From the NCBI GenBank assembly GCA_045654485.1, contig JAZONN010000016.1, positions 5,176-69,175 of the forward strand: a DNA stretch of 64,000 bases, given 5' to 3'. The position numbers and the translations under genes are program-made. Shown here piece after piece: positions 8,082 through 9,976 of this stretch (positions are counted from its first letter, which is position 1; every line of letters starts with the position of its first letter). The notes below the pieces were generated by a model. That model saw only the letters and a list, made by a program, of their open reading frames with translations, ran no database searches and had not been told where the DNA came from. The stretch is from Candidatus Enterousia sp. GTDB taxonomy: Bacteria; Pseudomonadota; Alphaproteobacteria; Rs-D84.

Positions 8082-9976
8082 CTTTGATGCCGCAATTGCA
8101 TTACATTTTTTATATAATAATGCGATTTCAAATTATTCAAATCATTTGATAATGATAAATTAAGAATCTTAAAATTTTCCTCCATTGAATCAATATATTC
8201 ATCAGACAAAGTGTTTAAGTATTTATTAAATCTAAGTATTGCTTCACAAATTCTTATAACACACGCCGCATCATTCATATAATAACCATTTATATATCGA
8301 ACGATATTATTTGCAGTAACCTTTTGTGAAGCACGAACATTTGGATTTTCATGTGGTTCTTCATTACCACGCACAAAAAAATCAATTGCCCGTGATGACA
8401 AAAACCTTTGATACAATTCCATCATTTCTGGAATAACCATATCATCACTACCAGAAAAATACTCTAAATATGGTGCAATTAATATGGTCGCATCTTGTTC
8501 ACCTTCACGCTTACTTAAATAAAATTGAAGCAATTGTTCATTTGATATTTTACCGGCCGCATAATCTGCAAAGGTATTTAAATAATCTATACACAAATTA
8601 AACCTTTCCGTATTTTTGTTTATCGTTTCTATCCGTTTTAATTTCGTTTTTTCATCATTATCTTCTTTATACAACCTTTCTGCTTCTTCGCCATACGCAA
8701 CAACAATACCATTTTTTATATAATAATTATTAAAATAACTATTTGGGTCTGGATAACGCAAATTATACCGCACATCAATCATAAAACAAACTTCATCGAT
8801 AACTCTATTTTTATACGATGCTAACTTTACTCTTGGCAATGGTTTCCCAATATTTTTTTCTTTCAAATCCGGATACATTGGTATTCCCGTTTTGAAACAC
8901 TTCATTAAATCCATTGTCCATTTCAAATCTAAAATTTTTTTCGCCCATTCTTCCGCTTTGGCTTCATCTTCATATGAATCCATAAAATTTTTTATATTAT
9001 TATATTGTTCTTCAAAGGGCCCAAACAAATCTAATGATGCTTTACTTAAAACATATTCTACCTGACCCGGCAATGCAACCTTTAACATTTCCAAAACTAT
9101 TTCTTGCAGTAATTTAGTTTCTTCTTTTGTCTTTGTCTGGAACTTATTCCCTATTATTACAGATAAATTGCGTATACGCACAACATGATTTCCATCAATC
9201 TCACGCACTTTAACCAATTCAAGAATTAATTTCAAAAATTCAACACGATTAATTTTTTCTAAATCAGTTGTTTTAAAACGTTCCAACAATTTTTTTTCAA
9301 TAAATGTATGAAAATCATTTGCCGGATACAAACTATTAAAATCACGTTGAAAATTAAACCAATCAAAGTTTTTATTTTTTATAATAGTATCAAAGTCACC
9401 AATTTCCGCCGCTTTTTTTGTTAAACACGCTTTGACATCTTCTGCACGTGCAAATGGTGCACCATGCACATCCAATGTAACATGATTATTTCCCTGATAA
9501 TAAAATATCTTGTTTTGCATTTCCAAGATATATCGTGGGTTATATCCGGCATTATACATTAATTCCACCGAATAAGCATCCGACCACCTTTCTTGGACAA
9601 TTGTATTATCACTTGACGTATTTTTTTGCCAAAAATAATGCCCACATTCATGTGCGATAACTGCGGCAATTTCTTCTTCTCGGTCCAATTTTCTAATCAA
9701 AGAATCAGATACCGCAATCACATTTTTCTTTAATCCAGAATTACGTGTATTTTCTTTATTCATAAAAAACGCATTTGGACTATTGCTATTAAAGCATAAA
9801 AATGCAAAATCATTGCTATCCACCCCCGTATTTTTACACAACCTTTCAAATACGTGTTTTACTTTTTCCCCAACCATTCTTGTCACAGAACTATCCAAAT
9901 CATAAAAACACAATTCTTCAAAATCATTTTGATGAATCCCAAGTTCATTTCTGGTATTATCGGTCATTTTTCCCAT
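8009..9976 (-). CDS. N-terminal portion of the second giant paralogue (M48-type Zn-peptidase domain plus unknown region)
   Basis: NAFFMNKE...EEIAAVIAHECGHYFWQK...QERWSDAYSVELM parallels the N-terminus of 718..5337. The likely start is the second ATG (MTDNTRNE, 9967), preceded by GGATGGGA. Confidence 0.8.
   Translation of the reverse strand: MGKMTDNTRNELGIHQNDFEELCFYDLDSSVTRMVGEKVKHVFERLCKNTGVDSNDFAFLCFNSNSPNAFFMNKENTRNSGLKKNVIAVSDSLIRKLDREEEIAAVIAHECGHYFWQKNTSSDNTIVQERWSDAYSVELMYNAGYNPRYILEMQNKIFYYQGNNHVTLDVHGAPFARAEDVKACLTKKAAEIGDFDTIIKNKNFDWFNFQRDFNSLYPANDFHTFIEKKLLERFKTTDLEKINRVEFLKLILELVKVREIDGNHVVRIRNLSVIIGNKFQTKTKEETKLLQEIVLEMLKVALPGQVEYVLSKASLDLFGPFEEQYNNIKNFMDSYEDEAKAEEWAKKILDLKWTMDLMKCFKTGIPMYPDLKEKNIGKPLPRVKLASYKNRVIDEVCFMIDVRYNLRYPDPNSYFNNYYIKNGIVVAYGEEAERLYKEDNDEKTKLKRIETINKNTERFNLCIDYLNTFADYAAGKISNEQLLQFYLSKREGEQDATILIAPYLEYFSGSDDMVIPEMMELYQRFLSSRAIDFFVRGNEEPHENPNVRASQKVTANNIVRYINGYYMNDAACVIRICEAILRFNKYLNTLSDEYIDSMEENFKILNLSLSNDLNNLKSHYYIKNVMQLRHQRWHLKREFHIVFLVNLNWVRNHSI
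8105..8111 (-). other. A_AAA_AAT heptamer (X_XXY_YYZ form) in the frame of ORF 8009..9976; a -1 shift here enters the frame of ORF 5385..8081
   Basis: Minus strand reads ...TAT ATA AAA AAT GTA... in the upstream frame. After a -1 shift it reads ...AAA AAA TGT AAT GCA ATT..., which is the downstream frame. Both frames are open across 8085..8132. Confidence 0.55.

Follow-up and report, generated by a model that had tools for sequence, protein, structure and literature searches.

A one-base deletion in an A7 run, rather than programmed recoding, probably splits the gene of a large M48-peptidase/UbiB-like-kinase protein in Candidatus Enterousia

In a stretch of 64,000 nucleotides (nt) of contig JAZONN010000016.1 from Candidatus Enterousia sp. 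(assembly GCA_045654485.1; the whole stretch is hereafter the window), a minus-strand gene for a large protein, in which an M48-like peptidase domain is fused to a UbiB-like kinase domain, is divided into two overlapping open reading frames (ORFs) at an A_AAA_AAT heptamer. Our analysis indicates that this split is probably an unprogrammed one-base deletion that turned A7 into A6, that is, either a frameshift mutation or an error of the assembly. Between the two, we lean towards a real and very recent inactivating mutation; programmed frameshifting, phase variation and functional fission are improbable even when the three are taken jointly. The elements at the junction are the following.

8009..9976, minus strand: upstream ORF of 655 amino acids (aa) with an ATG start, ending in the stop at 8009-8011 (protein P0025).
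8106..8111, minus strand: A6 run, one base short of the 7-nt state of the relatives (AAAAAAA or AAAACAA), with T following at 8105.
8105..8111, minus strand: A_AAA_AAT heptamer in the upstream frame, of the X_XXY_YYZ form and produced by the deletion; the relatives read ATA AAA AAA TGT or ATA AAA CAA TGT.
8012..8132, minus strand: zone of 121 nt in which the upstream and the downstream frames are both open.
5385..8105, minus strand: genuine 3' portion of the gene (C625 to residue 1530, and the stop), translatable only via a -1 shift or an internal start.

The layout had been read correctly from the letters alone (the sequence-only reading): two overlapping minus-strand ORFs meet at the heptamer at 8111..8105, where the upstream frame has the codons TAT ATA AAA AAT GTA over 8116..8102, the last four of them at 8113-8111, 8110-8108, 8107-8105 and 8104-8102. 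Both frames are open over 8085..8132 as that reading held, but the true zone is wider and extends to 8012. The downstream frame is open from 8132, where a TAA at 8135-8133 precedes it, extends as far as the stop at 5385-5387 and has the sequence ...LLYKKCNAIAASKVAFKERV; the gene caller set the start of this part at TTG 7991, which gives a product of 868 aa (P0034). A -1 step at A_AAA_AAT leads to YIKN|CNAIAASK across the junction, with YIKNCNAIAASK as the trans-frame peptide, and continues in the downstream frame to a fusion of about 1,530 aa, as had been proposed. In fact, once one A is reinserted the gene measures 4,593 nt, or 1,530 codons and a stop, with no stop other than the terminal one, and is colinear with its orthologues. 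More specifically, residues 1-623 of the upstream ORF are the authentic N-terminal part, namely the M48-like peptidase domain and a linker, and residues 624-655 (NVMQ...NHSI, codons 8107..8012) form a tail outside the true frame; this nonsense tail contains the peptides NVMQLR… and HQRWHLK.

The comparison with relatives carries most of the argument. All 12 independent related assemblies or runs have 7 nt at the site, a single frame and an unbroken ORF of 1,524-1,537 aa, and 6 nt are found in the window only. The run is A7 in nine of them (L001, L002, L013, L014 and the runs X1, X2, X3, X6 and X10, in the context …YIKKCNAIAASK…), and in the other three (X13, X14 and X17, runs of another strain) it is AAAACAA, encoding Ile-Lys-Gln-Cys, by which the tract is interrupted and the frame kept. 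The orthologues compared at the site are 94-99% identical to the window in nucleotides, and X1, X2, X3, X6 and X10 are Logan contigs of gut-metagenome runs, that is, contigs only and not reads. For example, 8,853 nt of L001 align with the window at 99.14% identity, with A7 against the A6 of the window; its contig encodes P0001, which was retrieved by a protein search with the downstream part and is an unbroken protein of 1,530 aa, 99% identical over 99% of that part, with the sequence …SHYYIKKCNAIAASK… at the site. L002, the GTDB representative, also has A7 (94.4% identity over 15 kb), and the one locus found when JGI metagenome contigs were scanned for A6-A8 alleles carries A7 as well. Moreover, the 90%-identity protein cluster holds at least 10 intact members of 1,524-1,537 aa, along with both pieces from the window, P0025 and P0034, which come from one 135,654-nt NCBI contig. 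In distant orthologues (35-53% identity) the protein is unbroken at this place, a poorly conserved linker from which the Lys-Lys pair is absent. What is conserved is the reading frame, and not the slippery or homopolymer sequence; the heptamer A_AAA_AAT is present because one A is missing. The comparison of A6 with A7 at orthologous loci had been suggested by the sequence-only reading, and its outcome agrees with what that reading kept as a fallback, namely that one base was deleted from the homopolymer or that the sequencing erred.

As for other variation in this part of the gene, the contigs of several runs diverge from the window at 8867 and continue in unlike sequence, and the 18-nt stretch 8104..8121 matches a second place in the contigs of those runs; this suggests strain-level structural variation, or small repeats, in the N-terminal half of the split gene.

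A mechanism may be outlined as follows. An A7 run (AAA AAA, encoding Lys-Lys, after ATA) in the linker of the 1,530-aa M48-peptidase/UbiB-like-kinase protein would have become A6 by replication slippage in the homopolymer, in an event private to this strain. The frame would be lost after Lys623 and 32 wrong residues would be added before the stop at 8009-8011; the N-terminal 40% with the peptidase would be made and the kinase-like C-terminal 60% would not, and the product left would consist of the M48-like domain and about 430 linker residues. Such a loss would probably be tolerated because an intact tandem paralogue, which may buffer it, lies directly downstream on the coding strand. Background slippage on A_AAA_AAU would supply the full-length protein at most in trace amounts. 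Apart from the deletion the gene shows no lesion, and the changes private to it are 6 synonymous and 5 non-synonymous, too few to detect relaxed selection; with no other lesion and so few private changes, the event is therefore either very recent or not real.

If it is not real, A7 and an undamaged gene are present in the cells, and only the deposited contig lacks the base. We consider such a consensus error a tangible possibility, though short of probable, and several observations that weigh against a mutation in the cells speak for it. The A6 state is found in this assembly only, against 7 nt in the 12 independent relatives; no indexed public run has words spanning A6 (62-nt query, 3 sampled words); among the indexed runs none corresponds to the window strain (at best 0.75 or 0.65 of the words are shared); an exact look-up of the 655-aa product in the contig index gave no record; and the source reads were not found. 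The lack of secondary decay is equally expected of an artefact, and homopolymers are the classic sites of consensus indels. A further conserved gene of the region, moreover, has a lesion of this type in L001: at about 3106 of that metagenome contig (window about 10240, within ORF 10080..11108 on the minus strand) an isolated A5-to-A4 frameshift cuts an rfbB-like gene, which matches RmlD_sub_bind/Epimerase/GDP_Man_Dehyd, to 295 aa, against 342 aa in the window and L013, and in data of this type such lesions may be assembly noise.

On the other side stands the record of the window as a whole. When 60 kb of it are compared with contigs from four or five further samples, about 14 indels are found between the window and the other strains, and the one at 8105 is the sole frame-breaking indel, despite 264 runs of A or T of six or more in the 64 kb. 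The remaining indels lie in intergenic T or A runs or at the edges of ORFs, or form compensated pairs, and the window allele is sometimes the longer and sometimes the shorter. Because these differences are bidirectional and frame-neutral, the assembly is not generally prone to homopolymer errors, and its length differences in intergenic tracts are unlike those of an error-prone long-read assembly. Besides, A7 is a short tract for an Illumina consensus error. Considering both sides, A6 would be in the DNA of the cells rather than in the assembly alone, and a genuine, recent inactivating deletion is what we favour.

Programmed -1 ribosomal frameshifting, or transcriptional slippage, at A_AAA_AAU would instead yield the full-length and the truncated protein at a set ratio, and this was the first thought of the sequence-only reading. 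It has in its favour that the junction coincides exactly with an X_XXY_YYZ heptamer in the appropriate frame, that the -1 frame runs on for 906 codons, and that the similar A_AAA_AAC of IS1 supports low-level shifting. The idea fails, however, on comparison: the two-frame layout is seen in none of the 12 close relatives and in no distant family member, the lineage with AAAACAA lacks the heptamer, and in the window the heptamer owes its existence to the deletion. The downstream stem-loop or pseudoknot that had been proposed as a sign of it was also looked for, and the folding energy is -13.1 kcal/mol for the 85 nt after the heptamer (z -0.05 against dinucleotide shuffles) and -6.2 kcal/mol for the 50 nt after it (z +0.41), so that neither stretch has structure in excess of the shuffles; no Shine-Dalgarno (SD)-like element (GGAG or AGGA) is visible within 20 nt upstream of the heptamer. 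Nor is the heptamer itself a rare form: the upstream ORF contains 17 in-frame X_XXY_YYZ heptamers, six of them AAAAAAT, which is no rarer than chance. Efficient bacterial -1 sites use A_AAA_AAG together with stimulators, as in dnaX and the IS3 family; the bare A_AAA_AAC of IS1 gives shifting of roughly a per cent or less; and productive slippage of RNA polymerase requires runs of about nine or more, for which A6 is too short to be efficient. Because the stimulators are lacking and the run is short, at most a trace of full-length product is to be expected from the A6 template, and we hold programmed recoding to be extremely unlikely.

A phase-variable tract, in which slipped-strand mispairing between A7 and A6 toggles this paralogue within the population, had also been suggested. 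The change is indeed one of homopolymer length in a large, duplicated gene that is possibly related to the surface or to host interaction; the tandem copy would permit variation; and other homopolymers of the window are length-polymorphic between strains. But the off state occurs in one of the 13 sequences only, as a difference between assemblies; the tract is interrupted (AAAACAA) in one lineage and hence not conserved, and KK is wholly absent from the more distant orthologues. Contingency tracts usually have 8 bases or more, and seven is under this length; with 77 runs of A7 or T7 in the window, and 21 A/T runs of six or more in the gene itself, this tract is unexceptional. The suggestion is thus left without support, and we regard it as very unlikely. 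Equally doubtful is a combined form of it, in which the A7 tract would be a low-grade on/off switch whose A6 state silences the kinase-like 60% and keeps the peptidase fragment, with some leak by -1 slippage on A_AAA_AAU; if such a switch were true, it would mean population-level variation in an abundant uncharacterised protein of a gut symbiont with a reduced genome.

Functional fission, by which the peptidase and the kinase-like parts would act as separate proteins, is highly improbable in our view. Both ORFs are long and otherwise undamaged, and TTG 7991, used by the gene caller, lies 18 nt past the stop at 8009-8011, so that re-initiation is conceivable. Against this, the arrangement is found in no relative, the upstream product bears the 32-residue nonsense tail, and the break falls inside the linker rather than at a boundary selected elsewhere. 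The candidate GTG and TTG starts have no recognisable ribosome-binding site, which is a weak test, as an SD-like motif is found in only 15 of the 46 long ORFs of the window. Moreover, two other splits of the gene lie at different points. In L013 the same gene has lost about 43 nt at the position equivalent to window 8866-8908, which leaves 355 and 1,173 aa (the deletion is at about 3041 of that contig, a SPAdes contig of 4.6x coverage); in L009, a more distant metagenome-assembled genome (MAG) with 46% identity, a frameshift at a non-homopolymer site, 7437..7467, leaves 509 and 1,077 aa. Independent and differently placed disruptions in related genomes are what the sequence-only reading had named as a sign of plain decay. 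Because L013 and L009 are broken independently at other places, the gene may be a large and dispensable mutational target, buffered by its tandem paralogue, which suits the one-base deletion preferred here.

The protein that is broken and its neighbour deserve a closer description, for which three further elements are needed.

718..5337, minus strand: unbroken tandem paralogue (1,539 aa) that shares the M48-like and UbiB-like architecture.
9638..9652, minus strand: HECGH zinc-binding motif (HExxH) of the M48-like domain, followed by QERWSD (E129, R130, D133), which is family-invariant.
6324..6854, minus strand: match to NCBIfam UbiB TIGR01982 (residues 1042-1218 in the numbering of the full-length protein); it forms the core of the UbiB/COQ8-like kinase fold, which continues through WDTDRHQGQQNF and FDTG.

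As had been claimed, the two pieces mirror the intact neighbour: the identity is 34% at residues 4-435 and rises to 46% in the C-terminal 735 residues, with a divergent middle. The label of peptidase holds as well, since the N-terminal part matches Pfam Peptidase_M48 (PF01435) with E 5.1e-12 and 46.4 bits against a curated cut-off of 20.3 and carries HECGH; the paralogue likewise matches Peptidase_M48. Residues H109, E110, H113, E129 and D133 are invariant in 24 sequences, and a PDB profile search matched 3c37 (M48) at E 1.7e-6. For the C-terminal part, TIGR01982 matches locally with E 3e-9 in the split gene and 3e-13 in the paralogue, i.e. 36 and 49 bits where the cut-off is 487, and Pfam ABC1 is not matched even at E up to 1 when the C-terminal 504 or 527 aa are searched, where only noise is returned; the domain is thus UbiB-like without being a UbiB equivalog. 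An AlphaFold model of the last 504 residues is of moderate confidence (predicted local distance difference test, pLDDT, 67; predicted template modelling score, pTM, 0.69), and Foldseek with this model gives COQ8A 5i35 as the best match (E 3.3e-6, template modelling score 0.52, target-normalised), next the mycobacterial MSMEG_1954 (7cyr, 7cz2) and COQ8A 7udp, and then generic protein kinases. In the 24 family members K1083-x-G-Q1086, D1303, H1305, N1310 and D1325 are invariant (KxGQ, D-R-H-x-G-x-x-N, D-T-G). Taken with the local match and the predicted COQ8A-like fold, the label 'kinase-like part' is justified for fold and motifs. About 850 residues between the two domains match no family.

The family to which the protein belongs is uncharacterised; its members have about 1,500-1,600 aa and carry an M48-like HExxH domain at the N-terminus and a UbiB/COQ8-like kinase fold at the C-terminus. 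Only 24 relatives were found, all in MAGs of gut Alphaproteobacteria; among species-representative genomes that were scanned, the family turned up in Candidatus Enterousia and other gut Alphaproteobacteria MAGs (sheep, goat, cattle and other guts). Tandem paralogues are also present in the close Enterousia L002 and L014, and in L001 and L013 as far as their contigs extend; together the two copies would account for about 1% of an approximately 0.9-Mb genome. Genomes of Enterousia (order Rs-D84) are about 0.75-1.0 Mb, are reported not to accumulate pseudogenes, and are reported to be without the tricarboxylic acid cycle or respiratory chains (PMC12306168). Because the lineage is reported to have no respiratory chains (PMC12306168), a ubiquinone-linked role of the UbiB-like domain is unlikely. 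No phage record matched the locus by megablast, and neither paralogue matched the PADLOC defence models.

Some side observations concern exchange between the copies and other tracts of the window. In the runs X1, X2 and X6, 14 substitutions fall within 38 nt of the intact paralogue (window 1506..1543), and this variant has an exact match of 23 nt to the split paralogue (6187..6209), against 13 nt for the window allele, which gives a hint of patchy gene conversion between the two paralogues; a comparable dense patch of substitutions is seen at 12243..12270. Near-identical motifs stand at 47970..47994 (GATGTTAAAAAAAATACCG) and 58777..58801 (GATTATAAAAAAAATACCG), and in other strains the A8 run of each is shorter by one base; the two may be copies of a repeated element, upstream or regulatory, whose tract varies in length.

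To sum up, the result is mainly a negative one: a slippery heptamer of textbook appearance between long overlapping ORFs is probably the scar of a one-base deletion, and a comparison with near-identical genomes reveals such a scar within a few steps. For annotation, both ORFs should be treated as one disrupted gene, rather than as two genes or a recoding event, and the sequence should be corrected if reads show A7. The broken protein may be of more interest than the break, as a conserved and tandemly duplicated M48-like/UbiB-like fusion of about 1,530 aa.

Finally, the locus can be set beside known systems. Like the sites of dnaX (A_AAA_AAG), IS1 (A_AAA_AAC) and the IS3 family (A_AAA_AAG), it has an all-A X_XXY_YYZ heptamer that joins two overlapping frames; unlike them, it is without a stimulatory stem-loop or an upstream SD-like element, and the last base of the heptamer is U rather than the G of dnaX and the IS3 family. 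Unlike at programmed -1 sites in general, the two-frame layout is not conserved, the relatives being single-frame, and the heptamer is a by-product of the deletion. With the contingency loci of Campylobacter, Haemophilus, Neisseria and Mycoplasma it shares a change in the length of a coding homopolymer that switches the product off; it differs in a tract of only 7, which is interrupted in one lineage and absent in distant orthologues, and in a single off allele among 13. As to the protein, it shares with the M48 metallopeptidases (HtpX/Ste24/BepA) the N-terminal HExxH with a downstream ER..D and a PF01435 score above the cut-off, and with the UbiB/COQ8 (ABC1) atypical kinases the C-terminal KxGQ, the D-x-H-x-G-x-x-N loop, D-T-G, the local TIGR01982 match and a predicted fold like that of COQ8A and MSMEG_1954; it departs from both in joining the two domains within a single protein of about 1,530 aa that looks cytoplasmic, and from UbiB in scoring far under the equivalog cut-offs. 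The closest likeness is with the frameshifted genes found at homopolymers in AT-rich reduced bacterial genomes, which show the same one-base change in an A/T run, intact relatives and restoration by one base; from a homopolymer frameshift pseudogene or assembly indel there is no substantive difference, and the event is of an ordinary, known kind.

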